Of a stretch of 45,839 nucleotides of DNA, positions 637 to 44,751 are shown piece after piece (within the stretch, counting starts at the first letter, position 1; the number at the start of each line of letters is the position of its first letter). Both the position numbers and the translations under genes were made by a program. The notes under the pieces are model-generated. The model had not been told where the DNA came from. It saw only the letters and a program-made list of their open reading frames with translations, and made no database searches. The stretch spans positions 1-45,839 of the forward strand of contig CAAFYT010000089.1 of NCBI GenBank assembly GCA_900767325.1. Direction: 5' to 3'. The stretch is from Kiritimatiellia bacterium (lineage in GTDB: Bacteria; Verrucomicrobiota; Kiritimatiellia; RFP12; UBA1067).

Positions 637-645
637 GGGCTGAAG

Positions 646-29087: not shown

Positions 29088-29115
29088 CAGGAACGGAAAG
29101 GGAAGTGATAGGCAG

Positions 29116-30258
29116 ATGAAAAAGCAGATCAGGAAGGTATTGGTCGTCAATTCGGGGAGCTCGTCGCTCAAATACCAGCTCTTCGACATGAAGACCGAAA
29201 CGCGCTTGGCCAAGGGGTTGGTGGAGCGCATCGGGGCCGGTGGCCCGAAGAACCACACCGAGGCGCTCAGGCAGGTCGTGCTCGACCTCGGTTCGCCGAA
29301 GGACATCGATGCCATCGGCCACCGCATTCTTCACGGTGGCGAGGTGTTCAGGGATTCGGCGCTGATGACCAAGGCGAACATGGCGAAGGCCAGGAAGCTC
29401 GTGAAGTTCGGCCCGCTCCACATGCCGGCGAATCTGGGCGGCATCGAAGCGTGCGAGGCGATTTTCAAGGGCGTGCCGAACGTGGGCGTGTTCGATACGG
29501 CTTTTCATATCGCCACCATGCCGGATTGCGCCGGTATGTACGCGATCGACCCGCGGTACTACAGGAAGTACGGCATCCGCAAGTACGGCTTCCACGGAAC
29601 GAGCCACAAGTTCATCGCCGCGACCGCTGCCAAGTACCTCAAGAAGCCCCTCTCGAAGGTCAATCTCGTGACCTGCCACCTCGGCAACGGCTCGTCGCTC
29701 GCGGCGATCAGGAACGGTGGCGTCGTCGATACGACCATGGGTCTGACGCCGCTCGCCGGCCTTGTGATGGGTACGCGCTGCGGCGATATCGACGCGGCGG
29801 CCGTCTTGTCGATCATGTCGACCGAGGTCGTTTCGCCGGCCGAGATGGATACGATCCTCAACAAGAAGTCGGGCCTGCAGGCGCTTTCCGGCGTGCCGGG
29901 AGGGGACTGCCGGGATATCTGCGCCAAGGCGGAGAAGGGCGACAAAGGCGCTGAACTTGCGCTGGAGATGCTGGCCTATCGCGTGGCGCTCTACATCGGC
30001 GCCTACAACACCGTGGTCGGTGGTGCGGATGCGATCATCATGACGGGCGGCATCGGCGAGAATTCGGCCGAGGTCCGCTTGCGCATCCTCTCCCGCCTCG
30101 GTGCGCTCGGCATCAAGCCGGACAAAGCCGTCAACGCCAAGACGCGCGGCGTGACGGCCGTGATCTCCGCCAAGGGGTCGCGCATACCGGTGATCGTCAT
30201 GCCGACGAACGAGGAACTTATGATTGCAAGGGATACTGTAAAGGTGCTGTCGAAATGA
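29116..30258 (+). CDS. ackA: Acetate kinase
   Basis: KVLVVNSGSSSLKYQLFDM, GHRILHGG, VFDTAFH, YGFHGTSH, CHLGNGSS and TGGIGENS are the full set of AckA motifs. The ATG follows ggaaagggaag, 28 nt after the giant gene 3 stop. Confidence 0.95.
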   Translation: MKKQIRKVLVVNSGSSSLKYQLFDMKTETRLAKGLVERIGAGGPKNHTEALRQVVLDLGSPKDIDAIGHRILHGGEVFRDSALMTKANMAKARKLVKFGPLHMPANLGGIEACEAIFKGVPNVGVFDTAFHIATMPDCAGMYAIDPRYYRKYGIRKYGFHGTSHKFIAATAAKYLKKPLSKVNLVTCHLGNGSSLAAIRNGGVVDTTMGLTPLAGLVMGTRCGDIDAAAVLSIMSTEVVSPAEMDTILNKKSGLQALSGVPGGDCRDICAKAEKGDKGAELALEMLAYRVALYIGAYNTVVGGADAIIMTGGIGENSAEVRLRILSRLGALGIKPDKAVNAKTRGVTAVISAKGSRIPVIVMPTNEELMIARDTVKVLSK

Positions 30259-31292
30259 ATGCGATTGAGAAAATCATCGAAAAGGCCTCCCAGCTGAACG
30301 GTTCGGTCGTTCTTCCCGAGGGGCAGGATCCGCGTGTTATCACGGCCGCCTGCGCTTGCGTCGACCGCAGGATCGCGACGCCGATCGTGCTGGGAACGGC
30401 GGAGGAGATCGCCGCGGCCGAGGCCAAGGCCAACTTGAAGCTCGCGGATCGCGGCATCAGGACGATCGACTACACGCAGGGCGATGCGGAGCTCGAGAAA
30501 GCTTATCTCGAGGCGTGGAACCTGAAGGAGTCGAAGAAGCCCGCCGAGAAACAGAAGCTCATCGATCTCGCCGCGGCCGAGAAGACGCTGCGCGGCAAGC
30601 GCATCTACTTCGGCGGCATGATGGTGAAGCTCGGCAGGGTCGATGGGCTCGTCGCCGGCTCCATCGCCTCGACGGGCGACATGTTGCGCGCGGCGTTCCA
30701 TACGCTCGGAACCCAGAAGGGCGTGAAGACCGCGTCCAGCTGCTTCATCATCGACCTGAAGACGCCGACGGAGTCCGACGATGGCGTGTTGGCGTTCGGC
30801 GATTGCGGCGTGATCCCCAATCCGACGGCGGAGCAGCTCGTGGACATCGGCCTTGCGACCGCGCAGAGCTACCGAGATCTGACGGGTCAGGAGCCGCGCG
30901 TCGCCTATTTGAGCTTCTCGACCAAGGGGTCGGCTGCCGGCGATCTGGTCGAAAAGGTCCAGAAGGCGGTCGAGCTCGCCCGGCCGAAATTCGCCGAGGC
31001 TGGAATCAAGATGGATGGCGAGATGCAGTTCGACGCCGCGATCGTTCCCTCGGTCGGTCGGCAGAAGAATCCGAACGGCGAGATCCAGGGGAATGCCAAT
31101 GTCTTCATCTTTCCCGATCTTCAGGCCGGCAACATCGCCTACAAGGTCGCGCAGCGTCTGGGCGGCGCGACGGCGATCGGGCCGAATCTTCAGGGGCTCG
31201 CCAAGGCGATGAACGACCTCTCCCGCGGTTGTTCGGCGGAGGATATCGTCGCCACGGTCTGCGTCACGCTTCTGCAATCGACCACGAAGTGA
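30255..31292 (+). CDS. pta: Phosphate acetyltransferase (short PTA_PTB form)
   Basis: VVLPEGQDPRVI, MVKLGRVDGLVAGS, FGDCGVIPNP, LSFSTKGS, IFPDLQAGNIAYK. ATGA overlap with the ackA stop. Confidence 0.95.
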   Translation: MNAIEKIIEKASQLNGSVVLPEGQDPRVITAACACVDRRIATPIVLGTAEEIAAAEAKANLKLADRGIRTIDYTQGDAELEKAYLEAWNLKESKKPAEKQKLIDLAAAEKTLRGKRIYFGGMMVKLGRVDGLVAGSIASTGDMLRAAFHTLGTQKGVKTASSCFIIDLKTPTESDDGVLAFGDCGVIPNPTAEQLVDIGLATAQSYRDLTGQEPRVAYLSFSTKGSAAGDLVEKVQKAVELARPKFAEAGIKMDGEMQFDAAIVPSVGRQKNPNGEIQGNANVFIFPDLQAGNIAYKVAQRLGGATAIGPNLQGLAKAMNDLSRGCSAEDIVATVCVTLLQSTTK

Positions 31293-31299
31293 GGATGGG

Positions 31300-32289
31300 A
31301 TGACGAAGGAACGGCAACTGAATCGGGCGCGCGAGGTCTTCGAGGTCGAGATCGAGGGGCTGAAACGCACCCGCGATTCGCTGGGCGAGTCCTTCACGTC
31401 GGCCATTCGGCTCCTCTTGGCGACCGTATCCTCCGGCGGTATCGTCGTGGTGACGGGCGTTGGCAAGAATCTGCATGTTGCGGAGAAGATGAGCGCGATC
31501 TTCGCCTCCACTGGAACGCGTTCGATCGTGCTTAATCCCGTCCAGGCGATGCATGGCGATCTGGGAATGGTCTCCGCCAACGATGTGCTGATCGCGTTGT
31601 CGTTCAGCGGCGAATCCGACGAGGTCCTTCGCCTCATACCGGCAATTCGCCGACACGGACTGAAGGTTGTTTCGCTCACGGGCAACGCGGCGTCGAATCT
31701 GGCTCGGCTTTCGGATATTCACATCGAGATCCCCTGCGGGAAGGAGGCGTGTCCGTTCGGCATGGCGCCGACCAACTCGGTCACGGCGACGCTGGCGATG
31801 GGCGACGCCCTCGCGATGGTCATGATCGATGCGCGCAAGTTTTCCATCACGGACTACGCCGCGAACCATCCGGCGGGAGCGATTGGACGCGCCCTGGTCC
31901 TCAAGGTGTCCGACATCATGCGTACGGGCAGCCGGCTTGCGCTCATTCCGCCGACCGCGACCGTGATGGATGCGGCGCTGGCGATGACGCAGTCCAAGGG
32001 CGGCAGCGCAGTCGTCGTCGACGGAGCGGGCAAGCTGCTCGGCATCTTCACCGATGGCGACTTCCGCCGCATTCTGACGAGCGCGCCGGAGGGCGCCGCG
32101 CTTCTGGCCTCGCCGATCGAGCGGCATATGACGAAGAAGCCGCAGTTCGTGCATGATGACGCCTATGCGGCCGAGCTTCTGAAGATCTTCGAACGGAAGC
32201 ACATCGACGATTTGCCGGTGTGCGATCGAACGGAGAAGGTGGTGGGGCTTGTGGATCTACAGGACCTGCCGAAGATGAAGGTACTCTGA
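31300..32289 (+). CDS. kpsF: Arabinose-5-phosphate isomerase, KpsF/GutQ family (SIS + tandem CBS)
   Basis: SIS motif VVVTGVGKNLHVAEKMSAIFASTG...ALSFSGES. The C-terminal part has two CBS-like units (...LLGIFTDGDFRR..., ...VVGLVDLQDL). Confidence 0.85.
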   Translation: MTKERQLNRAREVFEVEIEGLKRTRDSLGESFTSAIRLLLATVSSGGIVVVTGVGKNLHVAEKMSAIFASTGTRSIVLNPVQAMHGDLGMVSANDVLIALSFSGESDEVLRLIPAIRRHGLKVVSLTGNAASNLARLSDIHIEIPCGKEACPFGMAPTNSVTATLAMGDALAMVMIDARKFSITDYAANHPAGAIGRALVLKVSDIMRTGSRLALIPPTATVMDAALAMTQSKGGSAVVVDGAGKLLGIFTDGDFRRILTSAPEGAALLASPIERHMTKKPQFVHDDAYAAELLKIFERKHIDDLPVCDRTEKVVGLVDLQDLPKMKVL

Positions 32290-32310: not shown

Positions 32311-33033
32311 ATGAAGAAACTGATGATGGTGACGGCGATGATGGCGACGGCGACCGCCCTGGCGGCCGGCGGCATGAAGCACGGCGCCGTGCAGGCGGGT
32401 GCCGGAAACCTCGAGGGCCCTTCGACCGAGGGCAAGGACGCGAAGATCGTTATCGACGTCTACCCGAAGCTCAGCAAGCAGGCGCTTCTCTCGGCGCCCT
32501 CGATTGGCGAGGCCTCGACCATTGGTCGGTGCTGGACGGGGCGTCCGCGCCAGTGGATCGTCCTGGAGACGAAGTACACCACATTCGCCAAGTGCCTTGA
32601 ACAGCTGACGTTCACCTGGCATGTCGTTCTGGATACGAAGACGGCGACCAACAAGGATCGCGACGACCAGTCCCGGCTCGCCCCCTACTCGTACTTCACG
32701 ACGACGACGACCTACGCCAACATTCCCCGCGGATCGCACGCCGCGTCGGTTTGCCTGCATCCCTCCTATCTGGAACGTTTCGGCGAGCCGGTCGCGGTCG
32801 GAATCGTCATCTCCAACCAGAACGGCGACATCCTCGGCGGCGATACGGTCGCCATCGGAAAGGACGTCGCCACCTTCAAGGGCAAGAAGTTCTGGGAGGA
32901 CGAGAAAGTCATGAACGCGATCTATCGGGATGACATCCCCATGATTGAGCGTCGCCAGGGCCTGCAGGATCGCTCCAAGACGATCTGGGCGCTGATCAAC
33001 CCCAATGACTACGAGCTGGTGGTGCAGCAATGA
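32311..33033 (+). CDS. Secreted hypothetical protein in the Amuc_1102 position of the pilus-like cluster
   Basis: Signal peptide MKKLMMVTAMMATATALAAGG, RBS aggaaagga upstream. I recognise no motif. The assignment rests only on gene order relative to the PilM-like, Amuc_1100-like and secretin genes. There is no prepilin G/FTLIE motif. Confidence 0.7.
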   Translation: MKKLMMVTAMMATATALAAGGMKHGAVQAGAGNLEGPSTEGKDAKIVIDVYPKLSKQALLSAPSIGEASTIGRCWTGRPRQWIVLETKYTTFAKCLEQLTFTWHVVLDTKTATNKDRDDQSRLAPYSYFTTTTTYANIPRGSHAASVCLHPSYLERFGEPVAVGIVISNQNGDILGGDTVAIGKDVATFKGKKFWEDEKVMNAIYRDDIPMIERRQGLQDRSKTIWALINPNDYELVVQQ

Positions 33034-34649
33034 GCAAGAAATTCCTGACTCTGAACATCGGCGCCTCGACCGTCGAGCTGGCCGAATACGAAGCGGGCGC
33101 GAAGGGCGAGCTGATGCTCGTCAACTACGGTGTGGCGAAGTTGGCGGCGCCGTTGGATGGTGGCAACGCCGAGACCATCCTCTCCCCCGCGCTGATGGAG
33201 ATCGTCCGCGAAAAGGGCATCCGCCCCGGGAAGGTGGCGATCGCGGTCTCTGGGCAGATGGTGTTTCCGCGGTTCGCTGCGGTTCCGCTGGCGGGCGGCA
33301 ACGAGAAGTTCGAGCAGATGATCCGTTACGAGATCGAGCAGAACATCCCGTTCCCGATCGACGCCATGGTTTGTGACCATCAGGTTCTGGGTGAAACGGA
33401 GAACGGCGACAAGTCGGTCATGATCGTCGCCGCGAAGATTGATCAGGTCGAGGCGCTGACTTCGGCGATCTCGGCCGTTGGATTCGAGCCGGAGCTTGTG
33501 GATGTCTCGCCGATCGCCCTGACCAACGTGATGCGCTTCAACAGCGCCGATGGCGAAGAGTGCAAGGTGCTTTTGGATATCGGCGCGAAGACGACCTCCC
33601 TGGTGATCGTCGAGGGCGACAAGCTCTACAACCGTTCGATTCCGGTTGCGGGCAACACCATCACAAAGGAGATCGCCACGGCCCTCGGATGCACGATGGA
33701 AGAGGCCGAGGCGCTCAAGCTCGAGAAGGGCTATGTCTCGATGGGGGGCGTCTCCGAAGACGAGGACGAGGTCGCCGACGGGATTGCGAAGGCCGCGCGC
33801 GCCGTGCTGACCCGCCTGCACGCCGAGATCTCGCGGTCGATCAACTTCTACCGCGGGCAGCAGCACGGCGGCACGCCGACCCGGCTCTACCTGACGGGTG
33901 GCTCGGCCCTGCTGCCGCAGATCGACGACTTCTTCCGCGAATCCCTGCAGATCGAGGTCGAGTTCTTCAATCCCTTCGAACGCATCGCAATCGGCCCCAA
34001 GGTCGATTCGTCGGCGCTGGAGAAGATCGACGGCGCGGTCATCGCAACGACTGCCGGCCTCGCACTTCACCTAGCGAAGGCGGCGCGCTTCTCCATCAAC
34101 CTCCTGCCGCCGTCGATCATCCAGGCGAAGGCCGAGCGGGCTCGCGTGCCGTTCATCGCGATCGGCGGCGCGACGCTGGCTCTCGCCCTGGTTCTCGTGG
34201 GGATCGGCGTCAAGTTCGACGCCGCGGTGATCGACGCGAAGCGCGAGGGCATCGAGGGACAGGTCGCCGCGCTGGACAGGTGCGATAAGGCGATCAAGAC
34301 CGTCGAGGCGAAGTACAAGACGATCGAGGCCGAAGCCGAAGCGCTGCGCAAGCTATTGGCTGATCGCGCGGCCACGGTGCAGCGGGTGAATGCCGTACGC
34401 AACTCCATCCTCGCCGGCACGGGAATGTGGATCGAGCGGTGGGATGCGAACGGCGTGACCTTCCGCTACTGGTTCGACCGCATGAAGAAGAACAACGGCG
34501 GCAAGCCCGTTGGCGAGCTGGTCGCGGACAAGATCAAGCACAGTGGCGCGGTCGATGCGGATTCGAAGGTCGTGGTCAACAACATGATCGAACTCGGCAA
34601 GGACGATACCAAGGCACGGCAATTCTCGGTGGAGTTTAAATTCAAATGA
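33030..34649 (+). CDS. pilM: PilM-like actin-fold ATPase fused to a PilN-like TM/coiled-coil region (Amuc_1101-type)
   Basis: LNIGASTVELAEYE, VDVSPIALTN, LLDIGAKTTSLVIVEG...NRSIPVAGNTITKEIA and LYLTGGSALLP are PilM/FtsA-like. These are followed by INLLPP, the TM segment VPFIAIGGATLALALVLVGIGV, and a coiled coil. ATGA overlap with the upstream gene. Confidence 0.85.
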   Translation: MSKKFLTLNIGASTVELAEYEAGAKGELMLVNYGVAKLAAPLDGGNAETILSPALMEIVREKGIRPGKVAIAVSGQMVFPRFAAVPLAGGNEKFEQMIRYEIEQNIPFPIDAMVCDHQVLGETENGDKSVMIVAAKIDQVEALTSAISAVGFEPELVDVSPIALTNVMRFNSADGEECKVLLDIGAKTTSLVIVEGDKLYNRSIPVAGNTITKEIATALGCTMEEAEALKLEKGYVSMGGVSEDEDEVADGIAKAARAVLTRLHAEISRSINFYRGQQHGGTPTRLYLTGGSALLPQIDDFFRESLQIEVEFFNPFERIAIGPKVDSSALEKIDGAVIATTAGLALHLAKAARFSINLLPPSIIQAKAERARVPFIAIGGATLALALVLVGIGVKFDAAVIDAKREGIEGQVAALDRCDKAIKTVEAKYKTIEAEAEALRKLLADRAATVQRVNAVRNSILAGTGMWIERWDANGVTFRYWFDRMKKNNGGKPVGELVADKIKHSGAVDADSKVVVNNMIELGKDDTKARQFSVEFKFK

Positions 34650-35632
34650 ACAAGACAAAGACGACAGTGGCGATTACCGGGGGAGCGAGCGTCCTACTCG
34701 TTCTTCTGGCGGCAGGTTTCGTGTGGATATCGTATTCGACGAAGACCGTGGCCATCGAAGGCGATTACGAAGAGGGTACCGACGGCTACGAGACCGTACT
34801 CCTGAAGGCGGAGCAGCTCTCCCGCCGGAGCGTCTATCCCTGCAAGGAGAGCATCGAGACGATCGAGGCGAACATCGAGAAGCTGGATTCGTGGAAGGCC
34901 GAGGCGTTGGCGCTCGCCGCGCGCGGCGATTGGTCGCCCGATCCGACGGAAAGCGCGCCGCAGCTGAAGGCGCGCCTCCGCGACGAGGCGGGTCAGCTCA
35001 TGAAGCTCCCCGGTTCCGTCGGCGGCGTGCTGGTCAAGCCGGACTTCGCCTTCGGCGCGGCGTTCAAGGACTACATCACGGGCGGCAAGATGCCCGCCGA
35101 GGCTGACATCCCCGCGCTCCAGCGCAACTGGTACGACATCTCGATGATCGTGACGCTGCTGTCGCAGAGCGGCATCACCGAGCTGACGGATGTCGCGGTC
35201 AAGACCGCTGCGAACGAGCCGGAGACCAACGCGAAGCCTCAGCGCACGGCGAAATCCCGCAAGCCGGCGGCCGAGCCGCCGTCCTCTGCGGTGACCTATT
35301 CGTTCAGCTTCTCCACTCGTCCCGCCGGTTTCGTCAAGGCGATCAACGCGCTGACGACGGCCAATCGGTTCATCGTGATCGACGATTTCACAATCCAGCG
35401 GCAGGGCGATCCCATTCGCGAGGCGCTGGGCGGAGAGGACGACAAGCGCGCCGACCAGGGTTTGTCGCGCCGCGCGCGCGGACGGCGGAGGGGGTCTGAA
35501 CCCGAGCAGGAGGAAGGCGCCGTGACGGGCGGAATCGTCACCGATCCGCAGGCCGGCGCGCCGTTCAACGTCGTGTTGACGGTGACCACGCACGATTTCA
35601 AGTCCAAGCAGACGAAGGAGGAGGCGAAATGA
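34646..35632 (+). CDS. Amuc_1100-like (PilO-like) pilus-associated membrane protein
   Basis: N-terminal TM, coiled coil, P/A/E-rich linker, and a C-terminal core PAGFVKAINALTTANRFIVIDDFTIQRQ...FNVVLTVTTHDFKSKQTKEE. This parallels my recollection of Akkermansia Amuc_1100 (...VLKAMNAITGMQDYLFTVNSIRIRNE...VFVQVSLNLVHFNQPK...). ATGA overlap. Confidence 0.7.
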   Translation: MNKTKTTVAITGGASVLLVLLAAGFVWISYSTKTVAIEGDYEEGTDGYETVLLKAEQLSRRSVYPCKESIETIEANIEKLDSWKAEALALAARGDWSPDPTESAPQLKARLRDEAGQLMKLPGSVGGVLVKPDFAFGAAFKDYITGGKMPAEADIPALQRNWYDISMIVTLLSQSGITELTDVAVKTAANEPETNAKPQRTAKSRKPAAEPPSSAVTYSFSFSTRPAGFVKAINALTTANRFIVIDDFTIQRQGDPIREALGGEDDKRADQGLSRRARGRRRGSEPEQEEGAVTGGIVTDPQAGAPFNVVLTVTTHDFKSKQTKEEAK

Positions 35633-36741
35633 GCTCCAGTTCCGAGAAGAAGAACTTCTTCGCGACCCACTACGATTGGCTGATCGCCGGCGTTGGTGTG
35701 CTTGCGGCGCTGGCCGGACTCCTCGTGCTCGCCGTTTCGCTCGGCACGGATCCCGATGACGCGGCCGATGAGGCGAAGGCGAACGTCGCGCGGATGAAGC
35801 CCGCCAAGACCGGCGTGGAGGCGCTCGACTTGGCGGCGTACCAGTCGGCCGTCAAGGTGACGCGCAGTCCCGCGCTGATCAACGAGCTCCCCGAGAAGGG
35901 GGAGAATTTCCTTGCGAGTGAACGCCGCGTGATCTGCAAGGGCTGCAAGAAGGTCATTTCGGGGGATGTGAAGAAGACGCCCGAGTGCCCCTATTGCCAC
36001 GTTCCGCAGGAAGTCGAGCAGGTGCTGGTCGTCGATGCCGATGGCGACGGTCTTCCCGACGAATGGGAGAAGAAATACGGCCTCAACATGAACGACCCCT
36101 CCGACGCCAACGCCGATCCGGATGGCGATGGGTTCACGAATCTCGAGGAGTTCGCGGCGAAGACGAATCCGAAGGACCCGAAGGATCATCCGGACTACCT
36201 CGACTCCCTCGCCATCCAGCCGCCGCTGAAGCAGACGTTCATGCCGTTCGTCTTCACCAAGGCGACGCAGATTCCCGCCGGCTGGCGCTGCGAGTTCTAC
36301 GACGCCAAGACGCGCAACGACTACGGGCGACTGGGCCTGACGATGTCGGCGATGCTGGGCGAGGAGATCGGCGCAAGCGGCTTCGTTCTGAAGAGCTTCG
36401 AGAAGAAGGAGACGAAGGTTCCGATCGAAGGCGGCGAAGGCATGATGCGCACGAAGGACGTGTCGGAGGTCCTGTTGCAGCGCAAGCGTGACGGCAAGCA
36501 GATCCGGATGGTCTTCTCCGAGAGGAACAGCGAGGCACCGATGCCGGTCGACGTCCAGGCGACGCTTCTCTACGAGCGGGGCGCGGTCAAAACCTTCGAG
36601 GTCGTCAAGGGCTCCGAGGTCGATCTCAGCGGAAACAGGTATGTCGTGGTCGATATTGCGGAGACGAATCAGCGCATCAAGGTCACGCTGCGCAACCCGC
36701 TCACGGGCAAGCAACGCACCCTTGAAGCCCTTGAATCGTAA
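35629..36741 (+). CDS. Amuc_1099-position protein: N-terminal TM, CxxC...CxxC zinc ribbon, two TSP3 repeats, C-terminal beta-rich domain
   Basis: TM WLIAGVGVLAALAGLLVLAV. Zinc ribbon ICKGCKK...ECPYCH (35926-36003). TSP3 pair DADGDGLPDEWEKKYGLNMNDPSDANADPDGDGFTNLEEFAAKTNPKDP (36031-36180). ATGA overlap with the upstream gene. Confidence 0.7.
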   Translation: MSSSSEKKNFFATHYDWLIAGVGVLAALAGLLVLAVSLGTDPDDAADEAKANVARMKPAKTGVEALDLAAYQSAVKVTRSPALINELPEKGENFLASERRVICKGCKKVISGDVKKTPECPYCHVPQEVEQVLVVDADGDGLPDEWEKKYGLNMNDPSDANADPDGDGFTNLEEFAAKTNPKDPKDHPDYLDSLAIQPPLKQTFMPFVFTKATQIPAGWRCEFYDAKTRNDYGRLGLTMSAMLGEEIGASGFVLKSFEKKETKVPIEGGEGMMRTKDVSEVLLQRKRDGKQIRMVFSERNSEAPMPVDVQATLLYERGAVKTFEVVKGSEVDLSGNRYVVVDIAETNQRIKVTLRNPLTGKQRTLEALES

Positions 36742-36759
36742 ACGAATTTATTGTATAAT
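36731..36759 (+). promoter_or_regulatory. Sigma70-type promoter for the secretin gene (-35 TTGAAT, 17-nt spacer, -10 TATAAT)
   Basis: TTGAAT 36731-36736 overlaps the last codons of the upstream gene. TATAAT is at 36754-36759. Here a normal leader follows, with SD aaggagaagg 36771-36780 and ATG 36789. Confidence 0.6.
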
Positions 36760-36788
36760 GTAAAGGCAATAAGGAGAAGGCGGTCAGT

Positions 36789-39700
36789 ATGACGAATATC
36801 AATAAGTTTTTCGCCCTTGGTACGGTGGTATCGATGGCTGTCGCGTGCGGTGTTGTCTGTGCACAAGACGACTTGGATGGCTTGCTTCAGGAGCTTGAGG
36901 CCGAATCGGTCGCGAAACCGGTCGCAACGCCTCCGGCCGAACCGGCGTCTGCCGCCGTGGTCGCGCCCGTCGCCGAGCCGGCGCCTGCACCTGCTGCCGA
37001 GCCGGCGCCTGCTCCCGTTGCCGAGGTTGCGCCTGCCGCTGAGCCGGTTGCCGTTCCGACGCCTGTTGCTGAGGTCGCGCCCGTCGCCGAGCCGGCACCT
37101 GCCGCCGCGCCTGCTCCGGAGTCCGCCGTCGATGCCGAGTTGATTGCCAATCTCAGGGAGACCGAGAAGTTGCGTCGTCAGTCGCGTGACGCCCAGGCGA
37201 AGCGCGAGGTTGCGGATGCGCGAGTGTGCATGGGCAATGAGGAGTATAAGGACGCAATCAGCCATTACGGTCAGGCGCTGAAGCTCTTCAACGACAGCGA
37301 GGCCTCGAAAGAGCTTCGCAAGGAGTGCGAGCAGGGGATCGCTGAGGGACTCTACCGCGCGGCTTATCAGGAGCACGACCTCGGGCGCCTCGATCGCGCC
37401 AAGGATCTCATGGAGAAGGCGCTCAACCGCCGTCATCCGAAGGCGCGGAGCGTGCTGGAGCGCTGGAGCTCCGAGAGCGCGGAGGTCGTGAAGGCCAATG
37501 CGGGGGACGATTTCAAGCACGTCGTCAATGACGAGCAGTACAAGGCCGATCGCGAGCAGATCCGCAAGCATCTGCGCCGCAGCCGCCAGTACATGTCCGT
37601 TCGCGATCTCGACCATGCGCTTGAGGAGTGCGAGATCGTCTTGGCGTTCGATAGCTACAATCAGGATGCGATTCGCCTGCGCAAGGCGATCGAGCGGAAG
37701 CGCAACATCATTCTCGAGCAGGAGCACGAGCAGGCGCGCGACGGCATGATCGCGGACGTGGAGAAGGTGTGGCGGCCCGTGTACGCGGTGAACGCGACCC
37801 GGTTCAACGAGACGTCCGCCGGAACGGTCAAGACCCAGACGGGCGAGGATCCCGAGAAGACGCAGGAGCAGGAGATCGAGCGCCGCATGAAGGAAATGCG
37901 CTTGCCCTCGATTTCGTTCAAGCCCCCGGCGACGATCATCGAGGCGGTGGACTTCTTCCGCGGCGCGTCGAAGGATTTCGACCGTCCCGACATTCCGGAA
38001 GGCAAGCGCGGCTTCAACATCATGCTGAGAACGCCAAAGGGCGCGCTCCGTCAGCAGGCGCAGGACGAGGGCAGCGAGGGCTTCTCGGCCGGCGAAGACG
38101 ATTCCGCCGCGTCGAACGGCCTTGAGCCGATCTCCACGATCGTCGCGAGCGACATTTCGTTCTACGAGGCGCTGAAGCTCGTCTGCGAATCGGTCGGCTA
38201 CAAGTTCCTCATCCAGGGGCAGTTCGTGATGGTCATGCCGAAGAACATGTCCACCGACGAGATCCTGTCGCGCAAGTACGACGTCCCCGAAGCGTTCATC
38301 GAGCGCGTGACCGCGGCTTCCGACGAAGTCAAGCAGATGCGCAGTTCCTCTTCCGGCAGTTTCGGCAGCAGTTCGAGCGGCGATGCGGCGGAGGAAGGCC
38401 AGGAGCGGGATTGGAAGCTCTTCTTCTACAAGATGGGCGTAGAGTGGCCCGAGGGCGCCGAGATCACCCACATCAAGACCCTGGGCAAGCTCTACGTGCG
38501 CAACACGCGCGAGAACCTCGCCGTGTTCGAGAAGGTGCTGGAGGAACTGGGCATGCAGCCGCCGCTGATCGAGGTCGAGACGCGCTTCGTCGAGGTGATG
38601 CAGGAGGATCTCAACTCCCTGGGCTTCGAGTGGATCCTCAATAGCGACTATTCGCTGAACCTCGGCAATGCGCTGGGCAAGGCGCTCGGCGTGAGCAACG
38701 GAACGTGGGGCAGCGAGGGCGGTTCGCGCAGCATCACGCGCTCGGGTGCCGAAACCGGCACATCGACGGATTCGGTTATCACGAGGACTCAGGGCACGGG
38801 GTCTTCCACCACCATCAGCGGGGAGTCGTTCCAGGGCAACGAGAGCCGCTACAACCTGGGCAACAACTATAGCCGGAGCACCGTGTTCAACAATCGTCCG
38901 GGCAATTCGGACTACATGAACAACTATTGGATCCGCGACCGCGTGGGCGATGGGCGCAACATCGGCATCAATGCGTTCGGCGGCAGTTCCGACTATGCGA
39001 ACGGAAACCGCTACCTCTCCACGATGGGGAACCACATCACGGGCAGTGAGGTTCCGATCAACGACCAGTTCATGCGCGTGAACGCGTTCCTGGGCGAAGC
39101 CGATCTCTCGCTCATCCTCCACATGCTCTCGCAGCGCAGCGACACGGATCTGCTTTCCGCGCCGAAGGTGGTGACGAAGTCCGGCGAGAAGGCGGTCATG
39201 AAGGTCGTGGTCGAGTACCTGTATCCGACGGACTACAACGTGCAGCTGCAGTCGAGCTCGTCCAACAGCGGTGGCTACGGCGGTAATTCGCAGTCGGCGA
39301 TTTTGGCCGTCGTCGAGCCGCAGTCGTTTGCGATGCGCGAGGTGGGCGTGATTCTCGAGGTTCTGCCGACGTTCTTCGAGGCCAACGGCGGAACGATCGA
39401 CCTCGAGCTTTCGCCGAAGGTCGTGGATGAGCCGCAGTGGATGGATTACGGCGTCGAGCTGCCGTTTTCGGGCAACAGCTCCTCGCTCCAAAGCTTCCAG
39501 GGCATCGGCGAAATCTTCACCGGCCTTGCGGATGCGTTAGGCGCGATCGGCGCGACGCTTGACGACGTGACCAAGAACGCGATGGCGGTCTCGGCCACCG
39601 AATCGGCCACGGCGGCGCTGGACAACCTCACGGGCAGCTCCGGCAACAACGATCCCAGCAAGAACAAGTACAAGGCGCCGATGCGCCAGCCGTTCTTCCC

Positions 39701-39989
39701 CGTGCGTTCGATCGAGTCCAAGGTCTCGATTACGCCTGGTTCGACCGTGGTCATGGGCGGTCTCATCACCGAGCAGCGCAAGGCGATGGATGACAAGGTT
39801 CCCTTCCTCGGCGACCTGCCGTTCATCGGGCGGCTCTTCCGTAGCCATGCGGAGCAGACGGTGAAGAAGAACCTGCTCATTTTCGTGACGGCGCGTCTAA
39901 TCACGCCGTCGGGCCGCGAGGATCGCCGGAACAACATCGACTTGAGCGCCGAGCCGAATGTGACGCCGGCGCCCAAGGCGGAGTCGTAA
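36789..39989 (+). CDS. pilQ: Secretin (PilQ/GspD superfamily; Amuc_1098-type), 1066 aa with P/A-rich linker and TPR-like N-terminal region
   Basis: Signal peptide, then a P/A/V/E-rich tract and TPR-like helices (~37190-37720). N0-like ISFYEALKLVCESVGYKFLIQ. Secretin core IEVETRFVEVMQEDLNSLGFEW, LLSAPKVVTKSGEKAVMKV and the C-terminal signature VPFLGDLPFIGRLFRS...LLIFVTARLI. Confidence 0.9.
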   Translation: MTNINKFFALGTVVSMAVACGVVCAQDDLDGLLQELEAESVAKPVATPPAEPASAAVVAPVAEPAPAPAAEPAPAPVAEVAPAAEPVAVPTPVAEVAPVAEPAPAAAPAPESAVDAELIANLRETEKLRRQSRDAQAKREVADARVCMGNEEYKDAISHYGQALKLFNDSEASKELRKECEQGIAEGLYRAAYQEHDLGRLDRAKDLMEKALNRRHPKARSVLERWSSESAEVVKANAGDDFKHVVNDEQYKADREQIRKHLRRSRQYMSVRDLDHALEECEIVLAFDSYNQDAIRLRKAIERKRNIILEQEHEQARDGMIADVEKVWRPVYAVNATRFNETSAGTVKTQTGEDPEKTQEQEIERRMKEMRLPSISFKPPATIIEAVDFFRGASKDFDRPDIPEGKRGFNIMLRTPKGALRQQAQDEGSEGFSAGEDDSAASNGLEPISTIVASDISFYEALKLVCESVGYKFLIQGQFVMVMPKNMSTDEILSRKYDVPEAFIERVTAASDEVKQMRSSSSGSFGSSSSGDAAEEGQERDWKLFFYKMGVEWPEGAEITHIKTLGKLYVRNTRENLAVFEKVLEELGMQPPLIEVETRFVEVMQEDLNSLGFEWILNSDYSLNLGNALGKALGVSNGTWGSEGGSRSITRSGAETGTSTDSVITRTQGTGSSTTISGESFQGNESRYNLGNNYSRSTVFNNRPGNSDYMNNYWIRDRVGDGRNIGINAFGGSSDYANGNRYLSTMGNHITGSEVPINDQFMRVNAFLGEADLSLILHMLSQRSDTDLLSAPKVVTKSGEKAVMKVVVEYLYPTDYNVQLQSSSSNSGGYGGNSQSAILAVVEPQSFAMREVGVILEVLPTFFEANGGTIDLELSPKVVDEPQWMDYGVELPFSGNSSSLQSFQGIGEIFTGLADALGAIGATLDDVTKNAMAVSATESATAALDNLTGSSGNNDPSKNKYKAPMRQPFFPVRSIESKVSITPGSTVVMGGLITEQRKAMDDKVPFLGDLPFIGRLFRSHAEQTVKKNLLIFVTARLITPSGREDRRNNIDLSAEPNVTPAPKAES
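36915..37120 (+). repeat. Imperfect tandem/dispersed coding repeats encoding a Pro/Ala/Val/Glu-rich linker
   Basis: gccgagccggcgcctgc occurs at 36972-36988 and 36996-37012 (24-nt period). The 24-nt string ggtcgcgcccgtcgccgagccggc occurs at 36959-36982 and again at 37073-37096. Confidence 0.85.
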
Positions 39990-40076: not shown

Positions 40077-40460
40077 ATGAAAAAGGCGTTTGTGGTTGGT
40101 TTGGTGCTGTTCGCCGCCGTTTTCGCGCAGGCGAACGTGGCGCAGGTCAAGGTCGTCGGCAAGAATCCGCCGACCGGGTGCATGAGCGATTGGACGCCCC
40201 TCAAGCTCTCTCTCGCGGGCCCCGTGGCCTTGCCGCCCGGCTATTGGGATCTGAAGGGGCTTGACATCGGGGTGTGGTGCTGGTCCGAGAATGTGGATGG
40301 GTGCCAGATCGGCGTCGTCAATGCGGCCGATGTGATGCGGGGGTGTCAGATCGGCGTCGTCAATGTGACGCGCCAGGCCTATGGCGTGCAGATCGGCCTG
40401 GTGAATGTCATCGAGTCGAAGGATATTCCCTTTCTGCCGATTCTGAACTGGTATTTCTGA
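40077..40460 (+). CDS. Small secreted protein with three G-x-Q-I-G-[VL]-V-N repeats (resembles LA_2272-type surface repeat proteins)
   Basis: SD aaaggag, signal MKKAFVVGLVLFAAVFAQA. The repeats are GCQIGVVNAADVMR / GCQIGVVNVTRQAY / GVQIGLVNVIESKD. The upstream extension to 40038 lacks signal-peptide logic. Confidence 0.75.
   Translation: MKKAFVVGLVLFAAVFAQANVAQVKVVGKNPPTGCMSDWTPLKLSLAGPVALPPGYWDLKGLDIGVWCWSENVDGCQIGVVNAADVMRGCQIGVVNVTRQAYGVQIGLVNVIESKDIPFLPILNWYF
40296..40421 (+). repeat. 3 x 42-nt in-frame tandem repeat
   Basis: cagatcggcgtcgtcaatg occurs at 40305-40323 and 40347-40365 (perfect, 42-nt period). A degenerate third copy, cagatcggcctggtgaatg, is at 40389-40407. Confidence 0.9.
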
Positions 40461-40486
40461 TGGTCACGAGAAAGGAGATCGAGAAA

Positions 40487-41575
40487 ATGAAGAAGCTGTT
40501 GATGGTTTTGGTTGCGTCTCTGGCGTTGTCGGGTGCGGCGCAGGAACAGTTTTCCACCTCCGCGTCGGCGGCGGAAGCGCCGCAGAAAAAGGTGGCGATC
40601 TTCGTGCAGAACCGCACGCGCGTGCCGGGCATGGATGACGAGATCGACGGCATCCGCGATCGTCTGGCCGCTTCGTTGGCGTCCGTGGAGGGGTTGGTCG
40701 TCTGCGATTCTGCGCAGATCGCCGATTCCTTCCGCCGCTATAAGGTGACGACCGAGGAGGAGCGCCGGGGGCTGATCAGTGGCATCTTCAGCGGGGGGGG
40801 TGTTCCTAACGTGGCGCGGATGATCGGGTGCGATTACATCATCGCGGCCTCGGTCATCGGGGCGAGTTCGATGAAGCGCAACATGAGCGGGCGGCTCAAC
40901 ACCGTATTCACCCTTCGTATGACGACCAAGATCATGGATGCCGCGGGCGCGACGGTGGGCGGGCTTCCGAACTGGAGCAACACCTACCCCGTGATCGACG
41001 AGGGCGGCGACGATCCGATGAACTACTACAATATCTTGATCGACGGCTGGATCGAGGATGCGACCGAGCAGATCGCCGCGAGCGCCCCGAACTGGCGCAA
41101 ACCGGCCGCATCGGCCGGCGCGCTGGTGTCGTTCGATGTCAAGACGTCGATTGATTCGACGGTGGCGGAACTCGAGGCGCAGACGAAGGGCGTGAAGGGT
41201 GAGGATCTCGTCTCGCTGCGCAAGATCGTCGGGTGCGCGAGCGTCGAGCTGGATGGCGCCGTGATCGGATCCGCGCCGAACACGTTTCGCGCGACGCCGG
41301 GCCTGCACCAGATCAAGATCACGCGCGAATGGATGAAGCCCTATACGGCGACCGTCCTCATCGCCGAGGGAACAGTGCTCAACGTGGCGCTTGAGATGAA
41401 TGACGAAGGCCTGGCGAAGTGGGGCCGCGAGGAGTCCCTGCGGGCCGATCTCGCCCGTCGCTATGCCGAGGCCGCTGCGCTGCGCGGCATCAAGGTCAAT
41501 GTCGATACGTCGAAGTGGCGCGATGCCTCATTTGGCGGCGGAGTCGGGGGAAAGGTCATCCTCCAGAATGATTGA
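40487..41575 (+). CDS. Secreted PEGA-domain protein with a CsgG/LpoB-like N-terminal half
   Basis: SD aaaggag 40471-40477, signal MKKLLMVLVASLALSGAAQ. The N-terminal KKVAIFVQNRT...IRDRLAASL pattern resembles CsgG/LpoB-like periplasmic modules. The C-terminal VELDGAVIGSAPNTFRATPGLHQIKITREWMKPYTATVLIAEGTVLNVAL is PEGA-like. Confidence 0.7.
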   Translation: MKKLLMVLVASLALSGAAQEQFSTSASAAEAPQKKVAIFVQNRTRVPGMDDEIDGIRDRLAASLASVEGLVVCDSAQIADSFRRYKVTTEEERRGLISGIFSGGGVPNVARMIGCDYIIAASVIGASSMKRNMSGRLNTVFTLRMTTKIMDAAGATVGGLPNWSNTYPVIDEGGDDPMNYYNILIDGWIEDATEQIAASAPNWRKPAASAGALVSFDVKTSIDSTVAELEAQTKGVKGEDLVSLRKIVGCASVELDGAVIGSAPNTFRATPGLHQIKITREWMKPYTATVLIAEGTVLNVALEMNDEGLAKWGREESLRADLARRYAEAAALRGIKVNVDTSKWRDASFGGGVGGKVILQND

Positions 41576-42932
41576 TCCGTTGCGGTCAACTGCCCTTTTA
41601 GCGATTGCGGCGGCCGCGCTCCTATCGGGGTGCCTCTCGTATGATCGGGAAGCCGCCGCGGCGGTGAGTGCCCTCCAGTCCGGCTCCGACCAGACCGCTG
41701 TCAAGTGGGGGATCGAGCTCTCCGAGAGCGCCTTTTCCGAGCGTTTGGGCGAGGTCGAGGCGGGGCGCATCGAGCTTCTCGTCGGAAATGCGCCCGCCGC
41801 AGAGGTCTGGTTTCGGCACGCGATCGACGGCGCCATCGACCGGAGCGAATGCGAACCCCTGATCAAGCTGTGTAGCATCGCGCAGACCGCGCTGGCCTCG
41901 ACGGTGGCGGACGACAGGTCCATCGACTACACGCTCTCTCCCTACGAGATCAACCTGGCTCTCGAGTACGGCATCCTGGCGCAGCTCTTCAACGGCAGGC
42001 GCGAGGATGCGCGCGTCGATGCGCGGCTGTCTGCCTATGTCCAAGATAAGTTGACGAAAACCTACGGAGCCGACCTTGAGAAGCGGCAGTCGACGGACGA
42101 CCAGAAGACGAGCGACGAGACCTCGCGCATCATGACCGACCAGTCGAAGGTTTTGGACGCGATGATCGCGGCGACGCGAAACTCATGGGAGAATCCCGTT
42201 CTCTGGTGGCTGTCGGGCGTTCTATTCGAAGCGGATGGCGATCTGGATGGCGCGGTGCAGTCGTACCGGCGCGCGGCGGCGATTGCGGGGGGAAATCCGG
42301 TGTTCGCGGGCGATCTCAGGCGCGCGGATTCGGGGGGGCGCGCGCCCGACGGTTCCCATGCGCGGCTGGTGGTGATCGCGGAAGACGGCTTCGTGCCGCG
42401 GCGGGCGGCGCTCAAGATACCCCTGCGGATCTATGCCACGATGAGCATCGACATTCCGACCTATGCGAATGCGGCGCCATACCAGGTCAGGCCCGTCGTG
42501 ATCGATGGGCTGGGGGACGAGCGCGACGCCGTGTTTTCGCTCGACGTCCGCGCTTTGGCCGCGCGCGACCTGAAGGAGGATCTCCCCGGGATCATCGTGA
42601 GGAACATCACGCGTGCTGCGCTCAACGTGGGTGTTCAGGCCGCGGGGAAGAACACCGGCAACAGCTATGTGCGGTTGGGCGCCGAGCTCGTCAACCTCGT
42701 GCTGCTCGCGGTGCGTCAGGCCGATACGCGCAGCTGGGTCACCTTGCCAGATGCGCAATACGTGTGGCGCAAGGACGACGTCAAACCAGGCGAGCATCAC
42801 CTCGCGATTTCGGTCGGCTCCTGCACGGGCGAAGTCGACCTTGCGCTTCGCGCGGGCGAGACGGGGATTCTTTGGGTTTCCGCGTGTGGCGCGACGCTGC
42901 GCCACAAGTTCGCGATCATTTCCGGAAAATAA
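41568..42932 (+). CDS. Lipoprotein, COG3014-like (uncharacterised family often linked to YcfL/LpoB)
   Basis: MIDPLRSTALLAIAAAALLSGC has the lipobox LSGC. Helical, TPR-like N-terminal half and beta-rich C-terminal half. 8-nt overlap with the upstream gene. The family call is from memory of gene context. Confidence 0.6.
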   Translation: MIDPLRSTALLAIAAAALLSGCLSYDREAAAAVSALQSGSDQTAVKWGIELSESAFSERLGEVEAGRIELLVGNAPAAEVWFRHAIDGAIDRSECEPLIKLCSIAQTALASTVADDRSIDYTLSPYEINLALEYGILAQLFNGRREDARVDARLSAYVQDKLTKTYGADLEKRQSTDDQKTSDETSRIMTDQSKVLDAMIAATRNSWENPVLWWLSGVLFEADGDLDGAVQSYRRAAAIAGGNPVFAGDLRRADSGGRAPDGSHARLVVIAEDGFVPRRAALKIPLRIYATMSIDIPTYANAAPYQVRPVVIDGLGDERDAVFSLDVRALAARDLKEDLPGIIVRNITRAALNVGVQAAGKNTGNSYVRLGAELVNLVLLAVRQADTRSWVTLPDAQYVWRKDDVKPGEHHLAISVGSCTGEVDLALRAGETGILWVSACGATLRHKFAIISGK

Positions 42933-42948
42933 AGAAAGGAAACAAGGC

Positions 42949-43356
42949 ATGAAGGCGAAGATGGTTTGGGTCGCGGCGCTGGGGTTGCTCGGCGTGTGCG
43001 GGTGCGTGGATACGTCGGGCACGCGGGTCGTGGTCGATACGTCGTCCGGCGAGGCGCGGGTTCTGGAGAATTCGCAGGCCGTGGCGAATCGCGTGAAGGT
43101 GAGGAGCGTGACATATGGCGAGGTCAACTCCGACGGATTCCGCCGCGCGACGATCGTGTTGGAATCGCTGACGAAGAAACGCCTGAATCTGCAGGTCCGC
43201 GTCGTGTGGACGGATGAGGAGGGCACGGAGCTCGAATCCGCTTCCGCGCCCTATCGCACGGTGATCCTTGACGGTCTCGACACCTGCACCGTCACCGGCG
43301 TGGCGCCGAATGCGAAGGGTGTTGCCGCCAAGCTGAACGTGAAGCTTGAGGACTGA
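42949..43356 (+). CDS. YcfL-like (DUF1425) small periplasmic lipoprotein
   Basis: MKAKMVWVAALGLLGVCGC lipobox. A ~115-aa beta-rich body with LNLQVRVVWTDEEGTEL, typical of YcfL-family proteins. It sits directly upstream of an LpoB-like gene, as in E. coli ycfL-lpoB. Confidence 0.65.
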   Translation: MKAKMVWVAALGLLGVCGCVDTSGTRVVVDTSSGEARVLENSQAVANRVKVRSVTYGEVNSDGFRRATIVLESLTKKRLNLQVRVVWTDEEGTELESASAPYRTVILDGLDTCTVTGVAPNAKGVAAKLNVKLED

Positions 43357-43389
43357 CGAACAACCACAAGGAAAAAAGGAGGAAGAAAT

Positions 43390-44028
43390 ATGAAGATCGT
43401 CAAGGTTGCCGCGGCATGCGCGGCGGTTTGGGTTTCGGGGAGCGTGGTGTGTGGCTGCGCGACCGTGGCGAAGGAGACGTCGCTCGACCGTGCCCCCATG
43501 AGCGCGGCATTGGAGCCGCAGGACGTGCGCCGCACGGTCGAGAAGATGGTCGATTCGATGCTGTCCGACGCCGACTTCATCAAGGATGTCGGCGGGGACC
43601 GGCCCGTTCTCGACATCTCGGGCATCAAGAACAATTCGACGATGCACATCAACATGAACATGATCACCTCGTCGATCCGCACCAAGTTGCAGCGCTCGCG
43701 CCTCTTCAGGTTCGTTGACCACACGACGGCGGCGGACGATCTGCAGTTCATGAACGACCAGGCGCTCAACGGGCTGACCAATCAGCGCAAGGCGGTTCGG
43801 GCCGGACAGCAATCTGCCGCGCAGATGTATCTCTACGGCGAGCTCCTCGAGATGCGTCAGGAGGTGGACGATGCGAGCAGCAATCTGCTGCCCGTGACGT
43901 TCTCCTCGACGACCGATCGCTACTTCAAGTTCAACCTGAACCTGAAGGATCTGCGCTCGGGCGAGATCATCTGGAGCGATGAGCAGGAGATCCGCAAGTC
44001 GGAGCACAAGCCCATCCTCGGGCTGTGA
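43390..44028 (+). CDS. lpoB: Penicillin-binding protein activator LpoB-like lipoprotein
   Basis: SD aaaaaggagg, lipobox VVCGC. VRRTVEKMVDSMLSD..., ...PVLDISGIKNNSTMHINMNMITSSIRTKLQRSRLFRFV... and FKFNLNLKDLRSGEIIW match the LpoB/COG3417 pattern. 212 aa, like E. coli LpoB. Confidence 0.75.
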   Translation: MKIVKVAAACAAVWVSGSVVCGCATVAKETSLDRAPMSAALEPQDVRRTVEKMVDSMLSDADFIKDVGGDRPVLDISGIKNNSTMHINMNMITSSIRTKLQRSRLFRFVDHTTAADDLQFMNDQALNGLTNQRKAVRAGQQSAAQMYLYGELLEMRQEVDDASSNLLPVTFSSTTDRYFKFNLNLKDLRSGEIIWSDEQEIRKSEHKPILGL

Positions 44029-44032
44029 GATT

Positions 44033-44518
44033 CTAGATCGCAACGGAAACGCGCTCTGTTTCGGGGAGCGCCTTTTCCAGCGCATCGGGGGACATCGCGG
44101 CGCAGATGCCGCGATGTCCTGCGTTGATGTAGATCTTCGGCAGGTCGAAGATGGTCGATTCGATGTAGACCTTCATCCGCTTGCGCGTGCCGAAGGGCGA
44201 GGTTCCGCCGACATGGTAGCCGGAGTGCCGGTCGGCTGTTTCGGGGGTGCAGGTCTGCACCGTCTTGACGCCGCGGATGCGGGCGAGGCGCTTGGTCGAG
44301 ATTTCGCGGTCACCGTGCATCAGGCAGATGAAGGGCTTCTGGGATTCGTCCTCGAGAATGATGGTCTTGATGATGGCGTGGTGGTCGAGACCGAGTTCGC
44401 GGGCGCATTGGATGGTGCCGCCGTGAAGGGAGAAGTCGTAGGGCAGCAGTGTGAAGTCGATTGAAGCGGCTTTCAGCGTCCGGATGGCCTGCGTCATGGG
44501 GATTGTCGTCGGTTTCAT
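44033..44518 (-). CDS. ybaK: Cys-tRNA(Pro)/Cys-tRNA(Cys) deacylase YbaK
   Basis: 161 aa, TQAIRTLKAASIDFTLLPYD...IIKTIIL...FICLMHGDREISTKRLA...SGYHVGGTSPFG...VYIESTI. This is the YbaK/ProX editing-domain pattern. Confidence 0.9.
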   Translation of the reverse strand: MKPTTIPMTQAIRTLKAASIDFTLLPYDFSLHGGTIQCARELGLDHHAIIKTIILEDESQKPFICLMHGDREISTKRLARIRGVKTVQTCTPETADRHSGYHVGGTSPFGTRKRMKVYIESTIFDLPKIYINAGHRGICAAMSPDALEKALPETERVSVAI

Positions 44519-44525
44519 GGCGGAG

Positions 44526-44555
44526 ATTATAGCATAATTTCCTCTCCGCGGCTAA
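44526..44555 (-). promoter_or_regulatory. Promoter for ybaK (extended -10 TGcTATAAT on the minus strand; weak -35 TTAGCC)
   Basis: The minus strand reads ...aaattaTGcTATAATctccgccATG. TATAAT is the complement of 44526-44531. The ATG (44518-44516) follows after exactly 7 nt, with no SD. Confidence 0.55.
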
Positions 44556-44698
44556 GGCGAAAAAGAGAGTGTGTCCTTTGTAGGTTGGAGGTTGAAGATG
44601 GGAGGTTGAGATTTAGACAGGATTAACAAGATTGACAGGATTGAGGTTGGGGGTGGAGATGGGATTAAGCGAGGACAAAGGCACGGATTGCGGAAATG

Positions 44699-44707
44699 TG
44701 GTACAAT
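44699..44707 (+). promoter_or_regulatory. Possible extended -10 element (TGgTACAAT) for the hydrolase gene
   Basis: TG 44699-44700 and TACAAT 44702-44707. No convincing -35. SD aaggagga 44737-44744 and ATG 44752 lie downstream. Confidence 0.35.
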
Positions 44708-44751
44708 ATCAATTCATTGATTTCCGAGAGTCAACAAGGAGGAGAACTATC

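Follow-up and report, generated by a model that had tools for sequence, protein, structure and literature searches.

The 45,839-nucleotide contig CAAFYT010000089.1, from assembly GCA_900767325.1 of a Kiritimatiellia bacterium (the window, at its full length), contains five open reading frames (ORFs) that lie on the same strand between positions 32311 and 39989 and are called p1 to p5 here (Table 1). An earlier note, made by a model from the sequence alone, had described these genes as a pilus-like locus of the type formed by Amuc_1102, Amuc_1101, Amuc_1100, Amuc_1099 and Amuc_1098 in Akkermansia, set in high-GC DNA. The ORFs and their coordinates were reproduced exactly. The G+C content was ~62% across the locus (0.62-0.64 within it, 0.58-0.67 over the whole window), and a hydropathy scan and the N-terminal sequences gave the same topology for the five proteins as had been described. 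When the proteins were searched against NCBIfam and Pfam models, p2 to p5 matched the Amuc_1101, Amuc_1100, Amuc_1099 and Amuc_1098 families in that order, and p1 was placed with Amuc_1102 by its fold. The gene order that the note had given is the one documented for the Akkermansia cluster (PMC5332112, PMC10688800, PMC13174399, bioRxiv 10.64898/2025.12.30.696933).

Table 1. Coordinates of the five genes of the locus and of the features adjoining them (positions in the window)
Feature	Position	Strand	Description
p1	32311-33033	+	240 aa ORF
p2	33030-34649	+	539 aa ORF
p3	34646-35632	+	328 aa ORF
p4	35629-36741	+	370 aa ORF
p5	36789-39989	+	1066 aa ORF
Possible internal promoter	36731-36759	+	TTGAAT-17-TATAAT, 10/12 match, in the AT-rich p4-p5 spacer
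ackA-pta-kdsD	28981-32289	+	Pfam/NCBIfam families; 21-nt gap before p1

p2 aligned over residues 2-470 with the NCBIfam model Amuc_1101_fam (NF045709) at 390.5 bits (E = 1.7e-116), below the 650-bit cut-off of that model. It passed the pilM model TIGR01175 (162.9 bits, cut-off 133) and matched Pfam PilM_2 (E = 6.4e-41). Residues 1-347 matched PilM structures in the PDB, from M. xanthus (3jc8_Ma, E = 4e-36) and from T. thermophilus (2ych, E = 1e-30), and a single internal transmembrane (TM) helix lies at residues 371-403. A profile of the C-terminal 190 residues (A4) found M. xanthus PilN (3jc8_Na) at E = 1.4e-6, in an alignment that spans the INLLP motif, the TM helix and the coiled coil. Because p2 matches PilM over its N-terminal part and PilN from INLLP onward, it is, judged from its sequence, a PilM-PilN fusion, with a predicted cytoplasmic actin-like PilM domain, the INLLP motif, the TM helix, and a periplasmic coiled coil followed by a small alpha/beta domain. 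An hhalign comparison of the p2 C-terminus with the p3 family aligned the TM helix alone, and PilN/PilO-type paralogy was undetectable in it.

This fused cytoplasmic, TM and periplasmic layout also mimics that of GspL in type II secretion systems (T2SSs). It favors a reading in which the locus encodes a T2SS-like scaffold, with p2, p3, p4 and p5 in the roles of GspL, GspM, GspC and GspD, respectively, and with a short pseudopilus that would export glycoside hydrolases or sulfatases, in place of an external pilus. We consider this reading unlikely. The models that p2 passes are those of PilM, the Pfam scan returned no T2SSL (GspL) match in it, and INLLP is kept in its linker.

p3 is the most divergent of the five proteins, with 24-55% identity across related loci. 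It matched the NCBIfam model Amuc_1100_fam (NF038287) over residues 19-253 at 33.6 bits (E = 2.6e-8), below the 180-bit cut-off, and no model in the local Pfam, PilO included, matched it even at E <= 10; the precomputed Pfam accession that covers it is PF28028. An AlphaFold2 (AF2) model made with 25 homologues (predicted local distance difference test score, pLDDT, of 70, and of 85-94 in the core) has an N-terminal TM helix (residues 5-32), a coiled coil and an alpha-beta-beta-alpha-beta-beta ferredoxin-like core. The top ten Foldseek matches of this model in the PDB were all Amuc_1100 crystal structures (6LAD, 6KNY, 6LAF), at E-values of 2.1e-7 to 2.1e-6, a probability of 1.00 and target TM-scores of 0.60-0.70. 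The next matches were PilO structures (3jc8_Oa, E = 8e-3, probability 0.98; 2rjz_A, E = 2e-2, probability 0.89). The earlier note had claimed an Amuc_1100-like C-terminal core for the product of 34646-35632 and had proposed comparing its predicted structure with Amuc_1100 and PilO; both the family match and the fold support that claim. The fold neighbors of p3 also argue against the T2SS-like scaffold, as the sole T2SS platform protein matched was a GspL (EpsL, 2w7v), at a non-significant E of 3.2. Residues 266-298 (window 35441-35539) form a nearly invariant arginine-rich loop with the consensus GRRGRRGRRG (R275, R276, R278 and R282), which sits in a low-confidence insertion of the PilO-like core. 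A second disordered insertion covers residues 188-212.

p4 passed the NCBIfam model Amuc_1099_fam (NF042425) at 89.4 bits (cut-off 50, E = 3.1e-25), with residues 140-352 aligned to model positions 106-320/321. The protein is predicted to be bitopic, as is p3, with one N-terminal TM helix (residues 15-42) and two TSP3 calcium-binding repeats (Pfam TSP3_bac), which are followed by a beta-rich C-terminal domain. The Amuc_1099 model covers this C-terminal domain and not the N-terminal part, which contains four cysteines (C103, C106, C120 and C123) that are invariant in 26 homologues. These form a CxxC-13-CxxC motif at residues 103-123 (window 35935-36000), on the predicted periplasmic side and upstream of the TSP3 repeats; the motif could be either zinc-ribbon-like or a pair of disulfides. 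When the p4 family profile was searched against the PDB, it returned calcium-loop matches only. The corresponding position in pilMNOPQ operons belongs to PilP, a lipoprotein whose beta-sandwich domain contacts the secretin N0 domain, and we infer that p4 is its counterpart in role.

p5 consists of a signal peptide, a Pro/Ala-rich linker, an N-terminal TPR region and a C-terminal secretin domain. The secretin domain matched Pfam Secretin (PF00263) at 103.4 bits (cut-off 27.5, E = 1.3e-29), whereas the N-terminal region gave weak, sub-threshold matches to TPR_2 and TPR_14. Against the NCBIfam model Amuc_1098_fam (NF042912), p5 scored 417.9 bits (E = 7.4e-125), below the 750-bit cut-off. Amuc_1098 (PilQ) has the same layout of TPRs and a secretin domain, and has been located in the outer membrane by immunogold labelling (PMC4960237). 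PDB secretins matched the C-terminal domain of p5 only, and the best of these was a GspD. The score against the GspD model TIGR02517 (113 bits, under its cut-off of 351) was likewise slightly higher than that against PilQ (105 bits); both observations count in favor of the T2SS-like scaffold.

The N-terminus of p1 is a signal peptide of the Sec type (MKKLMMVTAMMATATALA/AGG). Its AF2 model (pLDDT 75, near 90 in the core) is a beta-sandwich, and because the N-terminal hydrophobic helix of pilins is absent from it, p1 cannot be a canonical pilin. The sole significant Foldseek match in the PDB (E < 1e-3) was 7dsz_C, a crystal structure of Amuc_1102 (E = 1.2e-7, probability 1.00, TM-scores 0.52/0.63, 18% identity); secondary matches to GH3 accessory domains were weak (E > 1e-3). 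p1 itself gave no NCBIfam match at E <= 0.01, so that the Amuc_1102 family model NF042424 (cut-off 55 bits) was not reached directly, and no model in the local Pfam matched even at E <= 10. The precomputed Pfam accession that covers p1 is PF28178. Searching 1.84 billion representative proteins with the p1 family profile returned 253 relatives only. Distant ones among these pass NF042424, 'Amuc_1102 family pilus-like protein' (P0412, 61.7 bits; P0463, 58.0 bits; P0505, 55.4 bits), which gives an indirect sequence link between p1 and the Amuc_1102 family. The best-supported reading of p1 is a lineage-specific, Sec-exported accessory subunit of the Amuc_1102 (MUL2A) family.

The properties of p1 bear on a second alternative, in which the locus makes a pilin-independent gate for glycan import: the secretin, p2-p4 and p1 would form a 'selfish' uptake channel that brings large glycans into the periplasm, with p1 as a substrate-binding protein or plug, and no filament would be made. 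The p1 family is tiny and restricted and lacks the pilin helix; p1 always heads the operon, and its conservation is the best (50-67% identity, compared to 24-55% for p3). The Akkermansia cluster, now called MUL2, has also been tied to mucin acquisition and the periplasmic accumulation of glycans (PMC13174399, PMC12418764). These points are countered by the weakness of the GH3 matches. PilM/N/O-type scaffolds are known only within filament machines, and in one relative, described below, pilus motor genes adjoin the locus. On balance we find the gate quite improbable.

A search with the p1 family among the species representatives of GTDB yielded 80 loci (at least 80 genomes), whose flanks could be followed as far as each contig reached. 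Nearly all were from gut or rumen metagenome-assembled genomes (MAGs; sheep, goat, yak, human, chicken) labelled Kiritimatiellae, Kiritimatiellia, 'Verrucomicrobia' or 'Lentisphaerae', and p1 was among the best conserved of the five proteins across them. Wherever the contig reached, the order ackA-pta-kdsD-p1-p2-p3-p4-p5 on one strand was invariant, with no rearrangement. p1 and p2 were present in all 80 loci, p3 in 77, p4 in 75 and p5 in 68, and upstream pta and kdsD were each found in 78/80 and ackA in 69/80, with the shortfalls at contig ends. Each locus protein had between 298 and more than 1600 database relatives, and the close homologues that carry names were from Kiritimatiellae MAGs. 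The Kiritimatiellia are placed in the phylum Kiritimatiellota of the Planctomycetes-Verrucomicrobia-Chlamydiae (PVC) group. The Akkermansia-type assignment in the earlier note stands for the type of locus, but the host itself is a Kiritimatiellia-type bacterium and not a verrucomicrobium. The same data dispose of the reading of the five ORFs as a chance run or a decayed remnant. GC-rich DNA does give many long spurious ORFs on both strands, and yet all five proteins have strong homologues, intact domains and confident folds, and the genes are free of frameshifts and invariantly syntenic in 80 genomes. The family and fold matches and the 80-genome synteny refute this reading, to which we give next to no chance.

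Three junctions in the locus are ATGA stop/start overlaps of four bases each (at 33030, 34646 and 35629), as the earlier note had pointed out in arguing for stoichiometric co-translation. The overlap between p2 and p3 was retained in 71/76 related loci and that between p3 and p4 in 70/75 (~93% in each case), whereas the p1-p2 junction was a 4-nt overlap in just 2/77. The p4-p5 junction was a gap of >30 nt in 60/60 relatives examined. Because the overlaps are conserved in p2-p3-p4 and not at p1-p2, the argument for co-translation holds for p2-p3-p4 and is weak for p1. Four-base overlaps are also not special to the locus within the window, as they occur at ackA/pta (30255-30258) and at 4779-7604/7601-16081. 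Promoter and terminator scans of the window gave overall counts at chance level. Since such sites are at chance level overall, the promoter-like match in the p4-p5 spacer (Table 1) is a candidate that is suggestive only. Rfam and tRNA scans of the window gave no matches.

Among the window ORFs that were compared with Pfam and NCBIfam, none was PilB-, PilC- or PilT-like. The earlier note had seen no class III (prepilin) signal in the five proteins, and a six-frame search of the window likewise gave no such motif at the start of any ORF. Its statement that the locus lacks all motor and pilin genes is correct for the 45.8-kb contig, but this is the normal state of such loci. Genes for pilins and motors usually lie apart from pilMNOPQ operons, as in P. 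aeruginosa and T. thermophilus. They are missing from the Akkermansia locus too, so that their absence here is not unusual. In Akkermansia, the pilins of importance for colonisation are encoded at other sites in the genome (Amuc_1523-24, 1583, 0394 and 0745; bioRxiv 10.64898/2025.12.30.696933).

Among the 80 loci, motor genes were found within the 10-kb flank in one only (L005; MAG UBA3761, contig DFGB01000032.1). There, the secretin gene is directly followed, at positions 18288-20582, by a gene for a PilB/GspE-type ATPase of 554 aa and then by the start of a PilT-like ATPase gene. This arrangement implies that the lineage has both extension and retraction motors. The first ATPase scores equally as PilB and as GspE (608.7 bits with TIGR02538, 605.8 bits with GspE), which is compatible with the T2SS-like scaffold. 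T2SSs are not known to have a PilT-type retraction ATPase, and the PilT-like gene in this relative therefore argues for a pilus of the type IVa (T4a) rather than a T2SS. The presence of PilB- and PilT-type genes next to the locus likewise speaks against an import gate that works without a filament.

We conclude, with a probability of about 75%, that the locus encodes that part of a type IVa-pilus-like machine which spans the envelope and excludes the motors, and is the Kiritimatiellia counterpart of Amuc_1102-1098 (MUL2). In such a machine, the ATP-binding actin-like PilM domain of p2 would be joined through INLLP and the TM helix to a PilN-like periplasmic segment, and p3 would partner it as an inner-membrane-anchored protein of the PilO fold. 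p4, at the place of PilP, probably connects the p2/p3 pair to the secretin, and p5 would provide the outer-membrane channel, with its TPRs. p1 would contribute a Sec-exported beta-sandwich of the Amuc_1102 family, distinct from a canonical pilin. The predicted translational coupling of p2-p3-p4 is what would be expected of a 1:1:1 alignment complex, and the secretin gene would be served by its own spacer and perhaps its own promoter. The prepilins, prepilin peptidase, platform protein and PilB/PilT ATPases would have to be encoded at other sites of the genome. The analogy with Akkermansia suggests that such a machine would probably let the cell attach to complex host or algal glycans and take them up.

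Several observations weigh against this conclusion. Four of the five Akkermansia equivalog cut-offs are not passed; that of Amuc_1099 is the only one that is. Hidden Markov model (HMM) searches of PDB sequences, with either the single sequence or the family profile, did not reach Amuc_1102 from p1, nor did they reach Amuc_1100 from p3 (profile A1). For both proteins, the matches to these structures were thus found by fold comparison only. Neither p4 nor its family profile has detectable sequence similarity to PilP or GspC, and p4 is TM-anchored without a lipobox, where PilP is a lipoprotein. The secretin domain of p5 scores as well against GspD as against PilQ. Genes for a pilin, PilC, PilD, PilB and PilT are all absent from the contig, and a filament in this organism is putative. 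The function in glycan uptake would rest wholly on the analogy with Akkermansia, which is cited second-hand. Even so, both the T2SS-like scaffold and the filament-free import gate are less well supported than the type IVa-pilus-like machine.

The genes directly upstream of the locus are linked to it in essentially all 80 genomes (the counts are given above). The pilus-like genes may therefore be co-transcribed with genes of central metabolism (ackA, pta) and of the lipopolysaccharide (LPS) pathway (kdsD). The product of kdsD is an arabinose-5-phosphate isomerase of the pathway for 3-deoxy-D-manno-octulosonate (KDO) and LPS. Farther upstream, window 4779-29087 holds genes for three large secreted proteins in a row: one of 941 aa with a Listeria-Bacteroides repeat, one of 2826 aa with DUF2341, and one of 4194 aa that carries LamG and numerous TSP3 repeats. 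An ATGA overlap joins the first and second of these genes. Homologues of the 4194-aa protein were found upstream of ackA in 63/80 relatives, and none of the three proteins showed a C-terminal sorting signal, of the PEP-CTERM type or otherwise. Window 1-2052 contains a 5'-truncated gene of the DHDPS family, whose best NCBIfam match was N-acetylneuraminate lyase, far below cut-off, and then a gene for an N-acylglucosamine 2-epimerase. From its sequence this pair looks like sialic-acid catabolism, which would be consistent with foraging on host glycans.

Two genes for secreted proteins follow downstream of the secretin gene, within 40077-41575. The first (40077-40460) encodes a protein of 127 aa with a surface repeat of the LA_2272 type, and the second a protein with a PEGA domain. 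The PEGA gene probably starts at an internal ATG near 40487 and not at the GTG at 40274. A frameshift at 40274-40460 had been considered and was dropped, as the later start accounts for the gene. With tblastn (E <= 1e-5), homologues of the genes in 40077-45651 were not found in the 80 loci, which reach ~2.5 kb past the secretin. The GTDB representative assemblies behind several of the loci (L016, L023, L030, L035, L036, L053 and L066) are titled as unrelated organisms, namely Lachnospira hominis, Gemmiger sp., Barnesiella intestinihominis, Azospirillum sp., Faecalibacterium and a Methanomethylophilaceae archaeon. We believe that these are probably mislabelled or contaminated bins.

The locus is a known system to which we add a very divergent member, and its families are already modelled (NCBIfam Amuc_*, PF28028, PF28178). 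Amuc_1100 is the TLR2-active protein also named 'PAS', and few host-active proteins of the gut microbiota have received as much study as it and its neighbors. The domain analysis supports an assignment of Amuc_1101 as a PilM-N fusion, Amuc_1100 as PilO, Amuc_1099 as the protein at the place of PilP and Amuc_1098 as PilQ. On this PilM-N/O/P/Q reading the proteins would be parts of an assembly scaffold and not pilus subunits, which bears on the label 'pili-like protein Amuc_1100'. For structure-function studies, the Kiritimatiellia loci also offer naturally occurring variants of Amuc_1100 and Amuc_1102 that are very divergent. To a specialist the assignment would come as no surprise, but the extension to Kiritimatiellota and the sequence variants are of some value.

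A 2026 survey places the MUL2 locus mostly within the Verrucomicrobiales (PMC13174399), and no published mention of it in Kiritimatiellia was found in the searchable literature. The complete syntenic counterpart in at least 80 Kiritimatiellia genomes would mean that the system arose before the two phyla diverged. A broader proposal is that the Amuc_1102-1098-type machine, rather than being special to Akkermansiaceae or Verrucomicrobiales, is an ancestral device of the PVC superphylum that captures large sulfated or sialylated glycans with the help of pili and imports them into the periplasm, preserved intact in gut Kiritimatiellia, with p1 in substrate handling and p3 possibly a host-active ligand of the TLR2 type. 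We offer this tentatively, and regard it as rather unlikely.

Among known systems, the T2SS shares with the locus the topology of p2, which equals that of GspL, and a correspondence of p3 to GspM and of the secretin to GspD. It differs from the locus in that the sequence of p2 is that of PilM plus PilN and not of GspL, that p4 is without the HR/PDZ signature of GspC, and that a PilT-type ATPase adjoins the locus in a relative. The likeness to the canonical PilMNOPQ complex (M. xanthus 3JC8, P. aeruginosa, T. thermophilus) extends to the PilM domain, the INLLP motif, TM helix and coiled coil of PilN, the PilO fold and the secretin, and the gene order M-N-O-P-Q is common to both. Here, in contrast, PilM and PilN are fused in one polypeptide, the PilP position is taken by a TM-anchored protein with Cys4 and TSP3 motifs, the secretin carries TPRs in place of AMIN domains, and the leading gene, p1, is without a counterpart.

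Another of the known systems is the MUL2 cluster of Akkermansia, described as 'important for mucin acquisition' (bioRxiv 10.64898/2025.12.30.696933). In that cluster, Amuc_1102 is MUL2A and Amuc_1101 is MUL2B, a PilM (PMC13174399), and Amuc_1100 is called PilO/PilN-like (bioRxiv 10.64898/2025.12.30.696933). The sequences have diverged widely, with an identity over the Foldseek alignments of just 11-14% for p3 and 18% for p1. p2 is shorter here, at 539 aa compared to the 608 positions of the Amuc_1101 model, and the Cys4-bearing N-terminal part of p4 falls outside the Amuc_1099 model. The flanks differ as well: those in Akkermansiaceae hold dephospho-CoA kinase, rho and 3-dehydroquinate dehydratase (PMC13174399), and those here ackA-pta-kdsD. 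The host belongs to a different phylum, Kiritimatiellota. Neither locus holds pilin or motor genes, and the five genes and their order on a single strand are common to both.

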